Origin: Myxococcota bacterium
GTDB lineage: Bacteria; Myxococcota_A; UBA9160; UBA6930
DNA: 63,196 bases
Assembly: GCA_030065975.1 (NCBI GenBank)
Contig: JASJCN010000010.1
Span: 1 to 63,196 of the forward strand
Direction of reading: 5' to 3'
Positions 49,815-54,828 of this stretch are shown here, piece by piece. Under the pieces are notes generated by a model, which made no database searches, had not been told where the DNA came from, and saw only the letters and a list, made by a program, of their open reading frames with translations. The translations under genes were made by a program, and so were the position numbers. Numbering within the stretch: the first letter of the stretch is position 1; every line of letters begins with the position of its first letter.

Positions 49815-51824
49815 ATGGCCGTGCGCCCGCGCTCGTTCCGCACGCGGCTGAGCCTGGTGATGCTCGCGCTGCTCTTCGTGGCGCTGGGGCTCGTGATGGG
49901 GCTCGTGCAGGACGTGACCGCACGGCGTGTGGAGAGCGAGTTCGCCGCGCGCTTCGACCGGGCGGTGGCGGCGCTGCGCCAGGTCCAGGCGCTGACCGGC
50001 GAGCTGGTGGAGCGCGAGCTGGTCTCCCTGTGCTCGGGCAACCCGCGCTTCCGCACGGTGCTCGCGACGGCGTCGCTCCCGGGGACCAACCATCCCGAAG
50101 CGCTCGAGGAAGCGAACCTGTGGGTCCGCTCGCTGCTTCCCACCCTTCCCCTGGCGGCCGAGAGCGACGTCTTCATCGTCTCCGACGCGGCCGGCGAGCT
50201 GGTCTTCACGAAGACCGACGCCCGGCGCGTCGGCGACGACCTGACCGCCCTCCCGGTGCTGCGCGAGGCCGCCGAGCGGGGCCGCGCCTCGGGCGTCTGG
50301 GTGGCGGGGACGCCGCTTCCGGCCGGCCTCTCCTCCGCGCTCTTCCCCGATGCCGTGGGCGTGGTGCAGGTCTGGGTCGAGGCGGTCGCCTACGACGGCG
50401 AGATCCAGGGCTTCGTGATCGCGGGCGAACGGCTGGACGACGCGCTGCTCGGGCGACTGCGAGAGCTCTCGGGCCTGGATCTCGCCCTGGTCGGGGGCGG
50501 GCGGCTGCACGCTTCGACGCTGGTGGTGCGGGTGCAGGACGACCTGCGGGCGCGTGCGGCCGGCACCCCCGCTGAGCGGGGCGCGGATCGTCGGGAGTGG
50601 CTCGGCGGACAGCGCTTCGTCGTGCAGTCGGCCGAGGCCGTGCCCGGAGCCGGCGAAGAGGCGGTGGCCCTGCTGGTGCTGCAGAACCTGGACGCGGAGC
50701 TCGCCTTCCTCGGCTCGTTGCGTCGCACGGCTCTCGCTCTGGGCCTGGGCGTCGGTCTGGTCGCACTGCTGGTGGCCCTGGGCGTCGCGGGCGGCGTGAC
50801 GCGTCCCGTCTCGGAGCTGGCTTCCGCTGCGCGCCGGCTGGGAGCCGGCGAGCTCTCGGCCCGCGTCCGGGTCACGACGGGCGACGAGCTCGAAGACCTG
50901 GGCGACGCCTTCAACGAGATGGCCGAGGGCCTCGAGGAGCGTGAGCGGATCCGCCGCACCTTCGAGCGCTACGTCACGCCCGGCGTCGCGCGCCAGGTGC
51001 TCGAGCGGGAGGAGAGCGGCGGGCCGGCCGCCGACCGGCGCGACATCACCGTCGTGTTCTTCGACCTGGCCGGGTACACCAGCATGGCCGAGCGGCTCGA
51101 GCCCGAGCAGACCCTCGACCGCCTGAACCAGTACTTCGAGATCGTGCACGAGGCGGTCGCAGCCGAGCAGGGGACCGTCAACCAGTTCTTCGGAGACGGG
51201 GTGCTGGCCTTCTGGGGAGCCCCCGAGGCCATGCCCGACCACGCGCTGCGCGCCTGTCGGGCCGCCTCCTCGGCGCTCGAGAGCCTGGCCGCGCGCTCGC
51301 CCGAGTGGGAGCGTCAGGGGCTGCCGCCGATCCGCTGTCGTATCGGCATCCACACCGGAGAGTGTCTGGTGGGCGAGCTCGGCGCGGCGGAGCGCCGCGC
51401 CTACGGGGCCGTCGGTGACGCCATGAATCTCGCCAGCCGGCTCGAGGGGGCGAACAAGATCTACGGGACGTGCATCCTGGCTTCGGAGACCACGGTGCAG
51501 GCGGCCGGCCCGGAGCTCTTCGTCCGAGAGCTCGACTGGCTGCGCGTCGTGGGGCGGCGCGGCCGGGTGACGCTCTACGAGGTGCTGCCCGCCCTCGACG
51601 GCGCCTCTGCCTCGCGTCGCAAGCAGGTCCACATCCTCTACGAGCGCGGGCTCTCCGCCTGGCGGGCCCGTGACTTCGCCACCGCCCGCGAGGCCTTCCA
51701 GCAGGCCGTGGCCCTCGATCCCGAGGACGGCCCCTCGCGGACCTTCCTGCGCCGCTTCGACGATCTGCCCGAGAACCGGCTGCCCGAGGACTGGTCGCCC
51801 GTGCACGAGGCCGCCGAGAAATAG
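49815..51824 (+). CDS. Membrane class III nucleotidyl cyclase (2 TM, periplasmic sensor, HAMP, cyclase, TPR tail)
   Basis: HAMP DELEDLGDAFNEM; FFDLAGYT, GDG, RIGIHTG and GDAMNLASRLEG motifs. Confidence 0.88.
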   Translation: MAVRPRSFRTRLSLVMLALLFVALGLVMGLVQDVTARRVESEFAARFDRAVAALRQVQALTGELVERELVSLCSGNPRFRTVLATASLPGTNHPEALEEANLWVRSLLPTLPLAAESDVFIVSDAAGELVFTKTDARRVGDDLTALPVLREAAERGRASGVWVAGTPLPAGLSSALFPDAVGVVQVWVEAVAYDGEIQGFVIAGERLDDALLGRLRELSGLDLALVGGGRLHASTLVVRVQDDLRARAAGTPAERGADRREWLGGQRFVVQSAEAVPGAGEEAVALLVLQNLDAELAFLGSLRRTALALGLGVGLVALLVALGVAGGVTRPVSELASAARRLGAGELSARVRVTTGDELEDLGDAFNEMAEGLEERERIRRTFERYVTPGVARQVLEREESGGPAADRRDITVVFFDLAGYTSMAERLEPEQTLDRLNQYFEIVHEAVAAEQGTVNQFFGDGVLAFWGAPEAMPDHALRACRAASSALESLAARSPEWERQGLPPIRCRIGIHTGECLVGELGAAERRAYGAVGDAMNLASRLEGANKIYGTCILASETTVQAAGPELFVRELDWLRVVGRRGRVTLYEVLPALDGASASRRKQVHILYERGLSAWRARDFATAREAFQQAVALDPEDGPSRTFLRRFDDLPENRLPEDWSPVHEAAEK

Positions 51825-51921
51825 GCAGGCCGCCGAGAAATAGGCAGGCTGCCGAGAAATAGGCAGGCCGCCGAAGAACAGGCAGGCTGCCGAGGAGTAG
51901 GCGGGCCGCCGGGAAGTAGGC
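51808..51921. repeat. 19-bp tandem repeat x6, progressively degenerate (AGGCCGCCGAGAAATAGGC)
   Basis: The first copy contains the cyclase stop codon. There are no spacers. Confidence 0.85.
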
Positions 51922-51950
51922 GTCGGCGCGGGCACGGCTATTCTAGAGCG

Positions 51951-53489
51951 ATGCGTCTCTCCTCCCGTCTCGCCGACCTCGTCCTCTCGGACGACCGGGG
52001 CGAGGACGTGCGTCTCGGCGACCTGTGGCGCGAGCGGGCCGCGGTGCTCGTCTTCGTTCGCCACTTCGGCTGACTCTTCTGCCGCGAGCAGGTCGCCCAG
52101 TTGGGCGACGCACAGGACGAGATCGAGGCCGCCGGAGGCGACCTCGTGGTGATCGGGAACGGCGCCGCGCACTTCGCGAAGGCCTTCCGAGAGGACCTCG
52201 ACTTCCGCGGGACGCTGCTGGTCGACCCCGAGCTACGCGCCTATCGCGTGGCGGGTCTGCGACGCGGTCGGGTCGAGGTCCTGTCGCCGCGGCTCGGCTG
52301 GAACGCCCTGCGAGCCCTGGGCAAGGGACACCGGCAGGGCGCGATCGAGGGCGACCCGTGGCAGCTCGGGGGGGCCCTGGTGATCCGGCCGGGCGGCGAC
52401 CTCGCCTTCCGGCACGTGAGCACCGTGGCCGGGGATCACGCCGACCCCGAGGAGCTGATCGCCGCACTCGAGCCCGGCCTCGTGCCGTTGCCGGAGGGGG
52501 AGGGCGGGAGCGCTCTCGCCAGCGTGGCCCGGCCCCTCGGTCGCCTGGTCGATCCCCTGGTCCCGCTGTCCTTCTCGCGGCCCGGCTACGCGATCCGCGC
52601 GGCAGGCTTCGACCCCGACGATCTCGTCGTCGACCTGGGGGAGCAGCGCTGGCTCGTGACCGGCGCGAACTCCGGGATCGGCTTCGAGACGGCTCTGGCC
52701 CTCGCCGACCTCGGTGCCGAGGTCGAGCTCCTGTGCCGCAACCCCGAGCGCGGCGCCGAGGCCGCCGAGCGGATCGCGGACTCCACGGGAAACCGCCGGG
52801 TCCGGGCCCACGTGCTCGACGTCTCGAGCCTCGCCGACGTGGCCCAGGTCGCCGAGCAGCTGATCGATCGACCCGTCGACGGGATCGTCCACAACGCCGG
52901 GGTGCTTCCCGACGATCTGATCGAGAGTGCGGACGGCCTCGAGCTGACCTGGGCGACCCACGTAGCGGGCCCCCATCTGCTGACGCGGCTGCTGCGCCCC
53001 GCGCTCGAGGCGGCGCCGGCCGCGCGCGTGATCTTCGTCTCTTCCGGCGGGATGTACACCCGCGGCCTCGAGACCCGCGACCCCGACTGGCAGCGACGCC
53101 GCTACGACGGCGTGCTGGCCTACGCCGAGACCAAGCGCGCCCAGGTGGTGCTCGCGGAGCTCTGGGCGGAGGCGTTCGCCGAGACCGGGGTCACGTGCAA
53201 CTCCATGCATCCGGGCTGGGCGGAGACCCCGAGCGTCGAGAGCTCGCTGCCCCGCTTCCATCGCGTGACGAAGCCCTTCCTGCGGACACCGGCGGAAGGC
53301 GCCGACACGGTGGTGTGGCTCGCGGCAAGCCCGGCGGCGGCCGGGGAGACCGGCCGCTTCTTCTTCGACCGCCGGGCGGTCGGGACCCACTGGCTGCTCG
53401 GCACCCGCGAGAGCGCGAGCGAGCGGGCCTGGCTCTGGGAGCGCTGCGAGAAGCTCGCCGCGCCTTTCGTGGTGGTCCCCTCGGACTGA
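51951..53489 (+). CDS. Selenoprotein fusion: PRXL2/SelU-like (AhpC-TSA_2) UxxC domain plus DHRS12-like SDR, 512 aa
   Basis: ATG 51951 reads ...VFVRHFG-TGA(52071-73)-LFCRE in frame into WQLGGALVI; then TGANSGIG, HNAG, SSGGMY, YAETK and MHPGWAETP. Confidence 0.85.
52092..52109 (+). promoter_or_regulatory. Candidate bacterial SECIS
   Basis: GUCGCCC-AGUU-GGGCGAC stem starting at +19 after the UGA. Confidence 0.7.
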
Positions 53490-53496
53490 GGCCCGG

Positions 53497-54828
53497 CTAC
53501 GCGCGGGCCGAGCGCCGGCTCCGCAAGAGCCAGCCCTGGACGCGCGACCGGAGCTGGCTCGACTTGATCGGCCCGCTCAGGAAGTCGTGTGCGCCGGCGG
53601 CGAAGGCGCGCTCGGACGTGGCCGCCCGGGTCGGCTCGTGGGCGAGCACCAGCACGGACGCGCACGGGAGGGCCTCGCGAAGGGAGCGGCAGGCATCGGC
53701 CGCCGCCGGCTCGGAGCCGCGGCCGTCGAGCAGCACCAGGTCGGGCGGGGCGGCTCCGCCGCGCGTCGCCTCCTCCTCTCCGTGGGCGACCCGCAAGCGG
53801 ATGCCCTCGGGCTCGAGGGCCTCGGCCACGAGGTCGGCCGTCTCGCGATCGGCGTCGACCAGCAGGACGCACGGCGTCCGGGCCGACGCGTCGCCCGGGG
53901 GAGAGAGGCGCGCGTCGGGGGCCGTCGGCTGGTGTTGCGAGCCGGATCCTCGCAGCTCGAGCTCGCGGCCTTCGGCGGCGGCGAAGACGTCGAGGTCCGA
54001 GCCGACCCGGTCGACGCGCTTCCGGGCCCGCTCCTCGAGCTCGCGGATCGCGTCGTCGTTGCGGGTCGGGTCGTGGGAGAAGAGCGCGAGCCGGCGCGCA
54101 CCGGCGGCGAGCCCGTAGTCGACGGCCTGCTCCACCGGCGTGTGGCCCCAGCCGGCCTTCTCGGGGAACTCGGCCAGGGTGTACTGGGCATCGTGCACCA
54201 CGAGGTCGGCGTCGCGTAGGAATGCCACGTGACGCCGATCCTCGGCGTGGGCGGGCGCACTCCCCGGCGCGACGTCCGGGTCGAAGGCGGCGTGCGGCTC
54301 GTGGTCGGCGGCGTACACGAAGACGGCGCCGTCCACCTCGAGCCGATAGCCGAGGGTGAGCGCCGTGTGCTTCAGCAGCTGGGTCGTCACGCGGATGCTC
54401 CCGAGCTGGAGCGAGCCCTCCTGCAGATCCTCGAAACGCGGCGAGCTGGCGAGGCTCTGCAGCACCACGGGATGGTGTTCGTACGACATCTGCCCCGACA
54501 GCGAACGCTCGGTCTGATGGCGACGAGCGCCCGGAGCGCGGACGGTCCAGTGCTGGCCGGGCTCGAAGAGCGGGCTGAAGAAGGGGAAGCCCTGGATGTG
54601 ATCCCAGTGGGTGTGGCTCACCAGCAGGTGGGAGCGCGCCTCGGGTCCCGATTCCGGGGCCGAGCCCAGGGCCGCGGCCAGGGCGTGGGCGCCGGTGCCG
54701 CAGTCGATCACGACGCGAGTGCCGTCGTCGGCCACCACCTCGAGACACGAGGTGTTGCCGCCATAACGCACCGTCTCCGGTCCGGGCTTCGGAATCGAGC
54801 CGCGCGTACCCCAGAATCGAACCCGCAA
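53497..54828 (-). CDS. MBL-fold metallohydrolase with C-terminal receiver-like domain
   Basis: FWGTRGSIP, YGGNTSC, SHTHWDHIQG, WGHT and SHDP motifs; C-terminal VLLVDAD..VLLD. Confidence 0.87.
   Translation of the reverse strand: MRVRFWGTRGSIPKPGPETVRYGGNTSCLEVVADDGTRVVIDCGTGAHALAAALGSAPESGPEARSHLLVSHTHWDHIQGFPFFSPLFEPGQHWTVRAPGARRHQTERSLSGQMSYEHHPVVLQSLASSPRFEDLQEGSLQLGSIRVTTQLLKHTALTLGYRLEVDGAVFVYAADHEPHAAFDPDVAPGSAPAHAEDRRHVAFLRDADLVVHDAQYTLAEFPEKAGWGHTPVEQAVDYGLAAGARRLALFSHDPTRNDDAIRELEERARKRVDRVGSDLDVFAAAEGRELELRGSGSQHQPTAPDARLSPPGDASARTPCVLLVDADRETADLVAEALEPEGIRLRVAHGEEEATRGGAAPPDLVLLDGRGSEPAAADACRSLREALPCASVLVLAHEPTRAATSERAFAAGAHDFLSGPIKSSQLRSRVQGWLLRSRRSARA

Follow-up and report, generated by a model that had tools for sequence, protein, structure and literature searches.

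Does the stretch from 51951 to 53489 of the window (the whole piece of DNA analysed here, 63,196 nucleotides from a Myxococcota bacterium) encode a single protein, in which a selenocysteine-containing redox domain is followed by a short-chain dehydrogenase/reductase (SDR), and what could such a protein do? An earlier note on this DNA had claimed that an ATG at 51951, missed by the ORF track, opens a frame that reads RHFG-UGA-LFC and continues without a stop to the end of the SDR. Our examination of the frame agrees with this. The ORF list holds only 52101..53489 in the frame (462 aa from a TTG start) and lacks the 5' part, and translation with TGA as U gives R37-H38-F39-G40-U41-L42-F43-C44, with the TGA at 52071-52073, within an open frame of 512 residues that has a single internal U at codon 41 and no other stop before 53487-53489. 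The gene itself terminates with TGA; the organism therefore uses TGA as an ordinary stop, and codon 41 alone would be recoded. Taken jointly, the data make it highly probable that 51951-53489 encodes one selenoprotein with a hairpin-aided Sec41, which is composed of a SelL/PRXL2 domain and an NADP(H)-type SDR and belongs to a fusion held by one clade. The features referred to below are the following:

51951..53489, + strand: whole coding sequence of the predicted fused selenoprotein; with TGA read as U, 512 residues and then a TGA stop
51951..51953, + strand: ATG start codon, aligned with the first residue of the orthologues (M or a GTG-encoded Val, then R..TRLAGIEL)
51975..52466, + strand: SelL-related/PRXL2-like thioredoxin-fold domain, residues 9-172 (NF040769, PF13911, PRXL2B 9us9)
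52071..52073, + strand: UGA putatively read as selenocysteine, U41; the TGA is conserved and aligns with Cys forms
52080..52082, + strand: TGC codon of Cys44, the second residue of UxxC; invariant in alignment A1 and aligned with Cys47 of human PRXL2B
52092..52109, + strand: SECIS-type hairpin, stems 52092-52098 / 52103-52109, loop AGUU 52099-52102
52101..52103, + strand: TTG codon (Leu51) within the hairpin loop, the false start of the gene callers (ORF 52101..53489; the window's own database protein P0002, 462 aa)
52467..52508, + strand: linker, about residues 173-186, poorly conserved (A1 columns 175-195)
52509..52646, + strand: conserved helical N-terminal extension of the SDR, residues 187-232 (LVDP..SFDRxGF..F.P.DL.VDL; conserved in alignments A1 and A2)
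52647..53486, + strand: classical SDR domain, residues 233-512 (PF00106 at residues 235-431, PF13561 at 238-468)
52659..52682, + strand: cofactor motif TGANSGIG, residues 237-244; G238, G242 and G244 invariant in 98 sequences
53121..53135, + strand: catalytic YAETK, residues 391-395; Y391 and K395 invariant
53487..53489, + strand: TGA stop codon, which ends the 512-residue frame

The reading of codon 41 can be judged from its relatives. TGA occupies the identical codon in 23/23 full-length orthologues and the Sec codon in 17 of the 18 stand-alone relatives that were read, the eighteenth having TGC. The earlier note had asked whether the UGA aligns with Cys, and it does: the position of U41 is taken by Cys in a natural 509-aa form (P0021, alignment of database homologues), by TGC in the stand-alone gene L092 and by the nucleophilic Cys44 in human PRXL2B. 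The 40 residues upstream of the UGA are kept as protein in 23/23 genes, and the FCREQVAQLRD that follows it is likewise conserved in all of them. Judged from these alignments, 51951-53489 is a genuine selenoprotein gene, with the UGA presumably decoded as selenocysteine.

The GU-loop hairpin that had been proposed at +19 is found at 52092-52109. It reads GUCGCCC-AGUU-GGGCGAC, begins 19 nt past the A of the UGA and contains G-U in the loop. Across the 23 genes the pairing is kept in 98.8% of 161 cells, and compensatory changes on both sides occur in 3 of the 7 pairs, which was matched by 0 of 500 shuffles; the window's own hairpin bears one such change (GCC/GGC). The Leu codon of the loop is TTG in 23/23 genes, compared to 68 of 1357 Leu codons (5.0%) elsewhere in these genes. 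The same hairpin is present in many stand-alone SelL-related members of the phylum and is absent from the Cys form L092. The folding energy of 52065-52140 is ordinary (MFE -31 kcal/mol, z = -0.35, equalled by 72 of 200 shuffles), and a search of the whole window with Rfam at gathering thresholds gave no matches, the curated bacterial SECIS models being silent. The support for the hairpin is thus conservation and covariation, without help from the folding energy.

The machinery for selenocysteine, which the earlier note wanted to see confirmed in the genome, was recovered in part. The tRNA-Sec gene (selC, 71.5 bits; called SeC with anticodon tca by ARAGORN) and selD (247.6 bits) are present, whereas selA had no match and selB none above the cut-off in this genome, which is 85.5% complete and consists of 369 contigs. 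Among 40 relatives selA exceeds the cut-off in 38 and selB in 32, and a genome of the same genus (G001) has both. The window itself carries a second TGA-containing gene, for a peroxiredoxin with FTPGUT.

It could be argued that the UGA is a true stop, that the 40-codon piece at the 5' end is a relic and that the SDR protein begins downstream, at TTG 52101 or a similar codon. All gene callers indeed place the start downstream, and the missing selA and selB matches count on the same side. However, the residues ahead of the UGA are not only conserved as protein in every gene compared but also complete the thioredoxin fold, the UGA lines up with a catalytic Cys, the hairpin downstream of it covaries, the presumed TTG start is nothing else than the loop of this hairpin, and a protein started there would be devoid of the active-site residue. 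We therefore regard a true stop as very improbable. The chance that we are dealing with an artefact of assembly or sequencing, or with a pseudogene of one genome only, is smaller still and practically negligible. The genome is metagenome-assembled, and the stretch was found in one sequencing run only, X1, a marine sediment metagenome that is its probable source and is kept as contigs; but the contig of a second assembler from the same run is identical to the stretch over 51800-53131 without gaps, and the identical TGA and frame are present in 22 further genomes.

The N-terminal domain had been described as PRXL2/SelU-like with a WQLGG motif, and this assignment holds. AhpC-TSA_2 (PF13911) matches with 52.1 bits against a cut-off of 27, WQLGG is found at residues 137-141, and NF040769, the 'SelL-related redox protein', reaches 128.7 bits with the protein, above its curated cut-off of 120, and 123.4 bits on the DNA. 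The stand-alone NF040769 proteins (about 173 aa, Sec or Cys) occur in the same phylum and have the same RHFG-U-xxC site; in contrast to their single-domain format, the domain here is residues 9-172, the first third of 512 residues, and is followed by an SDR. It is therefore best filed under NF040769/PF13911 as a fused variant. A typical peroxiredoxin has the peroxidatic site PxxxT/SxxC (PF00578), whereas the site here is V-R-H-F-G-U, without T/S-x-x-U and unlike the FTPGUT of the other Sec gene in the window, and PF00578 gives only a partial match (residues 8-100, 33.5 bits). The eukaryotic PRXL2/SelU and SelL selenoproteins are, as we presume, close kin of this domain. Human PRXL2B (9us9) matches residues 16-172 with an E of 3.6e-15, and its R-x-F-G-C-x-x-C-R aligns with R-H-F-G-U-L-F-C-R of our protein. 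According to the available text of PMC12938796, human PRXL2B, the prostamide/prostaglandin F synthase, is a single-domain Cys protein that forms a homodimer, unlike the fused Sec protein considered here, and its Cys44 faces the peroxide of PGH2.

The second half is a complete SDR with TGxxxGxG and YxxxK, as had been noticed from the sequence: adh_short (PF00106) scores 83 bits against a cut-off of 26.6, the two motifs are TGANSGIG and YAETK, and S365 as well as N315 in HNAG (H314-N315-A316-G317) are invariant or nearly so in alignments of 24 and 98 sequences. R263, which stands after strand 2, is invariant in the 98 sequences, and this suggests, by what is generally known of SDRs, a cofactor of the NADP(H) type. 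The SDR half stays under every NCBIfam curated cut-off (134 vs 414 for PRK06196), and its nearest solved structures are 3rd5 and the light-dependent protochlorophyllide reductases, with a Foldseek TM of at most 0.84 on the target. It has TGxxxGxG, HNAG, Ser and YxxxK in common with DHRS12-type / PRK06196-like SDRs and differs from them in the additional N-terminal helical extension and the Sec domain; 'DHRS12' is to be understood here as the name given by JGI to some homologues.

The AlphaFold2 model of the whole protein has a mean pLDDT of 91.8 and a pTM of 0.87. It places helices at 188-200, 204-207 and 210-217 in the SDR extension, and the pLDDT drops to 71 in the block of residues 181-190, in the linker region. 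The linker is of conserved length and open in frame throughout alignment A1, and in stand-alone SDR relatives the match starts at query residue about 185-200. A Foldseek search of the whole model against the PDB returned SDR chains only (query TM at most 0.47) and no solved chain that spans both domains.

The recurrence of the fusion in relatives, for which the earlier note had suggested a search, is clear: within the same order or class, 22 further genomes carry the full-length gene with exactly one internal TGA at the same codon, and identity across the order is about 60% throughout the fusion (alignment A1). G022 had looked 'split', but its two matches lie in different frames of a single stretch, and we interpret it as a fusion gene with a change of frame rather than as two genes. 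Outside this order or class, within the phylum, the halves are separate genes, and in four genomes these are adjacent: G147 and G155 have the SDR followed by SelL(Sec), and G177 and G308 have SelL(Cys) followed by the SDR with 4-nt overlaps. Thus the earlier concern that all relatives might encode two separate genes is true outside the order or class and fails within it. The fusion originated inside a single order or class of Myxococcota, which has retained it with its UGA.

The architecture is not rare, as each of the best 120 database homologues contains both Pfam domains. Apart from one, these entries are N-terminally truncated, with an annotated start past the UGA, the database homologues opening with MRDR... 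or MFCREQ...; because of this start the truncated entries lack the catalytic residue, and they carry the plain name 'SDR oxidoreductase'. A contig search with the fused protein gave 16 loci with the SDR half only, from residue 189 (Acidobacteriota, Actinomycetota and others), with search patterns that were too specific. A close SDR match (E <= 1e-55) was present in 58 non-fusion genomes, 20 of which have a SelL-related match too, counts that are softened by kinship. With this co-occurrence, the coupling of the SelL and SDR halves is not obligatory.

Several multidomain selenoproteins have been reported. In its available text, the GOS survey (PMC2398784) names Prx-PP2C and Prx-like fusions and calls SelL only 'a Prx-like protein', and the corresponding text of a 2026 review (PMC13188914) names fusions of arsenite methyltransferase with AhpD and of rhodanese with a DsbD-like domain. 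These fusions resemble our protein in that a thioredoxin-fold Sec domain is accompanied by a second domain hinting at function. Unlike our protein, none of the fusions named in these portions of the two papers has an SDR or NAD(P)H domain, and the terms 'SDR', 'short-chain' and 'NADPH' have no occurrences in the available text of the review. The earlier note knew of no described example of the architecture, and our literature search likewise found no description of a SelL-SDR fusion in the texts available, although GOS Figure S1 and the tables of selenoproteome surveys might list one.

What would the fused protein do? The reading that we consider best as a whole, with a probability of roughly 0.6, comprises the gene, its selenium gating and a mechanism with a shared substrate. 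Codon 41 is very probably translated as selenocysteine with the aid of the hairpin starting 19 nt downstream, and U41, in the redox motif U41-x-x-C44, stands where human PRXL2B has its endoperoxide-attacking Cys. Since translation without Sec-tRNA would end at codon 41, by the known bacterial Sec mechanism, the SDR half is likely to be made only when selenium is at hand. More tentatively, and with somewhat less than even odds, both halves may act on one oxidised, hydrophobic, lipid-like substrate. By reducing a hydroperoxide or endoperoxide, the selenolate would become linked to C44 through a Se-S bond; a donor of the thioredoxin type would then recycle this centre, and the SDR half would use NADPH to reduce the carbonyl (or double bond) that accompanies damage of this kind. 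The gene would, in many relatives, be part of a light or photo-oxidative-stress gene set.

One could object that the fusion merely secures co-expression or selenium-gated expression and that the halves use unrelated substrates, for example as a general thiol/selenol peroxidase and an unconnected ketoreductase. This objection draws on the 38 of 58 genomes in which a close stand-alone SDR occurs and a SelL-related gene is absent, on the other N-terminal domains that are also paired with the SDR clade, and on the further SelL-related domain, a Cys paralogue in a gene of its own, that the same genome carries on C8. Nevertheless, we find it rather unlikely: three distinct arrangements by adjacency or fusion are met across several families, the fusion is kept over a whole order at about 60% identity, and the pTM suggests a single packed unit. 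Less likely again would be a self-sufficient, NADPH-driven selenoperoxidase, in which the SDR reduces the U41-C44 centre or a bound intermediate without thioredoxin or flavin. An SDR delivers its hydride to a C=O, C=C or C=N bond, and known NAD(P)H-to-disulfide enzymes use flavin; here neither a flavin nor an extra conserved Cys pair was seen, C262 near the cofactor site alone being conserved, and the Ser-Tyr-Lys residues of a carbonyl reductase are all retained. Such an enzyme would nonetheless make sense of an NADP(H) site joined to a centre that otherwise depends on an external donor; the high pTM is in line with it, as is NADPH being named the ultimate reductant for PRXL2B in the available text of PMC12938796. 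If it did exist, it would be a peroxide/endoperoxide reductase needing neither thioredoxin nor flavin, and animal PRXL2/SelU/SelL and DHRS12 would act as a pair.

The preferred reading, with a shared oxidised substrate, leans on the genomic context. Among 19 wide loci, nine contain a photolyase or a regulator of the MerR/B12 type at a distance of 0.4-6.6 kb, and genes for SRPBCC, lipocalin and NmrA/DUF2867 proteins are met in four loci each. Clustering within ±1.5 kb revealed no neighbour common to all 23 fusion loci, the largest cluster covering 5 loci, and for 15 loci of stand-alone SDRs the same clustering produced no group of more than 4 loci, that group being an SRPBCC gene. Longer members of the SDR clade carry an N-terminal SRPBCC domain of the lipid-binding type (6/7) or DUF2878 (1/7), and one further protein has HTH and B12-binding domains. 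In Pseudomonas, the light-induced clusters controlled by LitR contain a photolyase, an SDR, an FAD oxidoreductase and a furan-fatty-acid synthase (PMC9758184, available text). The relatives' genes, adjoining MerR/B12 regulators and photolyase, resemble such LitR/CarH (MerR + B12) clusters with their photolyase and SDR; in contrast, no selenoprotein is reported for the clusters in the available text of PMC9758184, and the window's own copy, whose flanking genes encode a HAMP-cyclase on one side and, in convergent orientation, a metallo-beta-lactamase/receiver protein on the other, has no light-response neighbours around it. The light-regulator and photolyase neighbours together with the lipid-binding fusions of the SDR clade point to repair of oxidised lipids, and the context favours an oxidised-lipid or light-stress role without proving it.

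The protein would be a new two-domain member of the bacterial selenoproteome, in which a whole downstream enzyme domain would be gated by selenium supply because of the UGA at codon 41. Fusion, and adjacency in both gene orders, tie the PRXL2/SelL-type family to the DHRS12-type family, which are poorly understood even in humans, and offer a testable idea for both, namely a shared handling of oxidised lipids. The MerR/B12 and photolyase neighbours suggest, in addition, that one branch of the response of bacteria to light stress depends on selenium.

As regards expression, no RNA run holding the stretch was present among the listed sequencing runs, and a promoter/terminator scan of 51700-53700 gave no promoter-like site and one terminator-like site, located within the coding region. 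Upstream of the gene lies a 19-nt repeat, whose array is unique to this place within the genome.

On sequence evidence, the in-frame UGA at codon 41 of the fusion gene is read as selenocysteine, and four lines of evidence agree on this: the codon is conserved, cysteine stands at this site elsewhere, a downstream hairpin is kept and the organism decodes selenocysteine. The earlier note had claimed an ATG-initiated frame reading RHFG-UGA-LFC that the ORF track missed, and the sequence confirms it; the mechanical ORF list holds in this frame only 52101..53489 (462 aa, TTG start). The features of the gene and its flanks are as follows:

49815-51824, + strand: HAMP, adenylate/guanylate cyclase and TPR protein, upstream flank
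51951, + strand: start ATG of the fusion gene, then 40 sense codons up to the TGA
52071-52073, + strand: in-frame TGA, codon 41, context RHFG-U-LFC
52092-52109, + strand: hairpin GUCGCCC-AGUU-GGGCGAC, beginning 19 nt past the UGA
53487-53489, + strand: stop TGA; frame open from codon 41 on, product of 512 residues
53497-54828, - strand: metallo-beta-lactamase-fold protein with response-regulator receiver domain, convergent, 8 nt past the fusion gene stop

The gene's own stop is also TGA; therefore the recoding at codon 41 is local, and a changed genetic code was ruled out as the cause of the internal TGA. Over 51800-53131, TGA and linker included, the sequence is letter for letter the same in a contig that a second assembler built from the probable source run, though such data are not independent.

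TGA occupies the same codon in all 22 full-length orthologues read from other genomes, and the protein is conserved in 22/22 both ahead of it (M/V-R-x-x-T-R-L-A-G-I-E-L ... V-L-V-F-I-R-H-F-G) and after it. Wherever position 41 is not TGA in the homologues compared, it is Cys, which answers the earlier note's question whether UGA aligns with Cys: the natural Cys form P0021 (509 aa), the sole full-length database homologue among the best 120, reads RHFGCIFC, a stand-alone relative has TGC at the TGA position, and the alignment with human PRXL2B (PDB 9us9, E 3.6e-15) places U41 opposite Cys44 and C44 opposite Cys47. Cys44 of PRXL2B adjoins the PGH2 endoperoxide and is preceded by Arg40/Arg41 (PMC12938796), comparable to R37-H38 before U41. 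Both Pfam domains are present in all 120 best database homologues, 118 of which are 445-483 aa long and match 86-91% of the query length; in the sequences inspected the N-termini are MFCREQ.../VFCREQ... or MRDR..., the annotated starts being the codon directly after the UGA or the TTG of the hairpin loop, and one homologue of 595 aa likewise begins after U. Sources label them 'SDR family NAD(P)-dependent oxidoreductase', 'DHRS12' or 'dehydrogenase/peroxiredoxin'.

The GU-loop hairpin, which had been noticed at +19, is present, and its pairing is conserved: across 23 genes, 161 cells were scored and 98.8% of them pair. Three of its seven pairs show compensatory, two-sided changes. The closing pair has twice become A-U from G-C, and of two other G-C pairs one has changed once to A-U and the other once, in the window's own copy, to C-G. 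None of 500 shuffles matched the observed pairing and covariation, pairing in slid registers drops to 10-55%, and the loop Leu codon is TTG in 23/23 genes, TTG making up 68 of their 1357 other Leu codons. The folding energy is ordinary for 71% G+C DNA (z = -0.35 versus shuffles), and an Rfam scan of the window gave zero matches. In alignments by eye, the same hairpin, with additional compensatory variants, occurs in 12 of 17 stand-alone Sec relatives, the remaining 5 have a hairpin with an AGGUC-type loop a few bases further upstream, and neither type was found in the stand-alone Cys form.

Of the Sec genes that the earlier note wished to see confirmed, tRNA-Sec (selC; 71.5 bits, SeC with anticodon tca by ARAGORN) and selD (247.6 bits) were found, but selA had no hit in this genome (85.5% complete, 369 contigs) and no selB hit there exceeded the cut-off. 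We attribute this gap to assembly incompleteness, because most relatives have matches over cut-off (selA 38/40, selB 32/40) and the same-genus genome has both. With its oxidoreductase-like half, selD is of the Ndh-SelD type that the GOS survey (PMC2398784) described. Related genes of this genome are:

C16:3322-4287: selD, fused behind a pyridine-nucleotide-disulfide-oxidoreductase-like half, C-G-G-C site
C8:4513-5007: Cys-type stand-alone SelL-related paralogue, 144.9 bits, no stop
window about 58879-58301, - strand: second likely selenoprotein, peroxiredoxin-type, TGA 58654-58652, reads AWFPKAFTPGUTQELEAL
C171:15580-16065, C83:15463-15756, C73:14056-14352, C183:11695-11985: further thioredoxin-fold-like matches, one in-frame TGA each

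The second gene in the window, a weak NF040769 match with one in-frame TGA, has a signal-like N-terminus and looks secreted; the last four may be other selenoproteins.

The proposed architecture, a PRXL2/SelU-like domain fused to a complete SDR, is upheld by Pfam (AhpC-TSA_2 on residues 51-156, adh_short on 235-431) and by NCBIfam, where NF040769 'SelL-related redox protein' covers residues 9-172 with 128.7 bits, its curated cut-off being 120; no NCBIfam model attains its curated cut-off on the SDR half. The SDR motifs T237-G-x-x-x-G-x-G244, HNAG, S365, Y391 and K395 are kept in alignments, and the invariant Arg263 after strand 2 presumably indicates NADP(H) as cofactor. An AlphaFold2 model built with 98 aligned sequences (mean pLDDT 91.8, pTM 0.87) predicts a thioredoxin-type fold for residues 1-172, a weak stretch around 181-190, three short helices at 188-217 belonging to a conserved N-terminal SDR extension, and a Rossmann fold for the rest. 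Foldseek matched SDR chains only (3rd5, light-dependent protochlorophyllide reductases) and found no solved chain spanning both halves.

The fusion recurs in 22 further genomes, and the closest named proteins among the best 120 come from Myxococcota. Among 40 relatives there are 11 complete, 2 contig-end-cut and 1 frame-changed fusions; the full fusion occurs in 18 of 300 genomes of a phylum sample (one with two copies), 17 of them in the same order and the other sharing the class only. The alternative of two separate genes in all relatives thus fails within the order and class but describes the rest of the phylum, where stand-alone SelL-related genes have about 180 aa, mostly with TGA, and stand-alone SDR genes about 310-340 aa. 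A SelL-related match at E <= 1e-25 occurs in 68/301 genomes. The halves are adjacent in G147 and G155 (SDR followed by a Sec-type SelL; in G147 they overlap by ATGA) and in G177 and G308 (SelL with Cys then SDR; 4-nt overlap). Judged by sequence, the fusion family is compact and young, since it forms a single representative (P0122, from profile position 42) among the best 150 matches in a sequence library clustered at 50% identity (1.84 billion representatives). Genome G310 carries two copies (C13:33273-36298 and C49:12547-14055); about 1 kb downstream of one of these lies a SelL-related gene that is stand-alone and of the Cys type.

The stand-alone Sec domain (curated family NF040769), the PRXL2B fold and ordinary SDRs are already known; new against the texts compared is the SelL-type Sec domain joined to an SDR, with UGA. 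In agreement with the earlier note, the paper texts searched do not name this fusion. The main text of a 2026 review (PMC13188914) has zero occurrences of NF040769, 'SDR', 'short-chain' and 'NADPH', the nearest of the table entries compared being a cd02970 Prx-like UxxS protein, and the selenoprotein fusions listed in the GOS survey (PMC2398784) are others than SelL-SDR.

The SDR clade appears to have repeatedly gained N-terminal partners that bind hydrophobic ligands. Seven of the 15 longer representatives in the best 150 were tested, giving six SRPBCC-SDR (SRPBCC/Polyketide_cyc2) and one DUF2878-SDR; a 609-aa protein has HTH and B12-binding domains N-terminal to the SDR. These eight proteins are P0123, P0135, P0158, P0185, P0211, P0234, P0142 and P0223. 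An SRPBCC gene also stands directly ahead of the SDR in the genome of the same genus. Across 19 loci (about ±9 kb; all 63 kb for the window's copy), a MerR-type regulator lies within 0.4-6 kb in 7, a photolyase within 0.7-6.6 kb in 4, either in 9, and NmrA/DUF2867, SRPBCC and lipocalin genes in 4 each. Three of the regulators, at L120, L128 and L031, proved on Pfam scanning to have B12-binding domains, whereas at L121 and L133 the MerR part alone matched. These neighbours look like a light-stress gene set, similar to the light-induced Pseudomonas LitR/CarH clusters with photolyase, SDR and furan-fatty-acid synthase (PMC9758184). At L118, L120, L121, L124, L125, L126, L128, L129 and L133 a fusion orthologue or split pair stands a few kb from such genes. 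The window's own copy, behind the HAMP-cyclase-TPR gene and facing the metallo-beta-lactamase/receiver gene, has no light-response neighbours within 63 kb.

Tentatively, with a probability of roughly 40%, we propose that the fusion enzyme repairs oxidised lipids in two steps, a reading favoured by the PRXL2B kinship, the hydrophobic-ligand partners and the light-stress-type neighbourhood. The Sec domain is related to human PRXL2B, which reduces a lipid endoperoxide by its first Cys (PMC12938796); the selenolate would reduce a hydroperoxide or endoperoxide, a thioredoxin-type donor would recycle the selenium centre, and the SDR half would reduce the accompanying carbonyl with NADPH. Alternatively, the halves would function independently, having been joined for co-expression, which we consider unlikely; in its favour, coupling is not universal (of 58 genomes that lack the fusion but have a close SDR match, 20 also have a SelL-related one). 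Direct NADPH-to-Sec coupling within the protein would be a new kind of chemistry for an SDR and is quite improbable. Since UGA stands at codon 41, selenium would, by the established bacterial Sec mechanism, gate synthesis of the SDR half; the aligned linker has no conserved Met or start, though a GTG may serve as one.

Upstream, at 51808-51921, a 19-nt unit (AGGCCGCCGAGAAATAGGC, 86% matches) is repeated head to tail six times, across the stop of the cyclase gene and up to 30 nt before the fusion gene ATG; a genome-wide search found no other occurrence of the array. Downstream, at the locus L068 (G128:C11), the frame beyond the fusion gene's TGA stop continues into a region with ...NHSSWSDILL..., which we take to be an acyltransferase-like motif.
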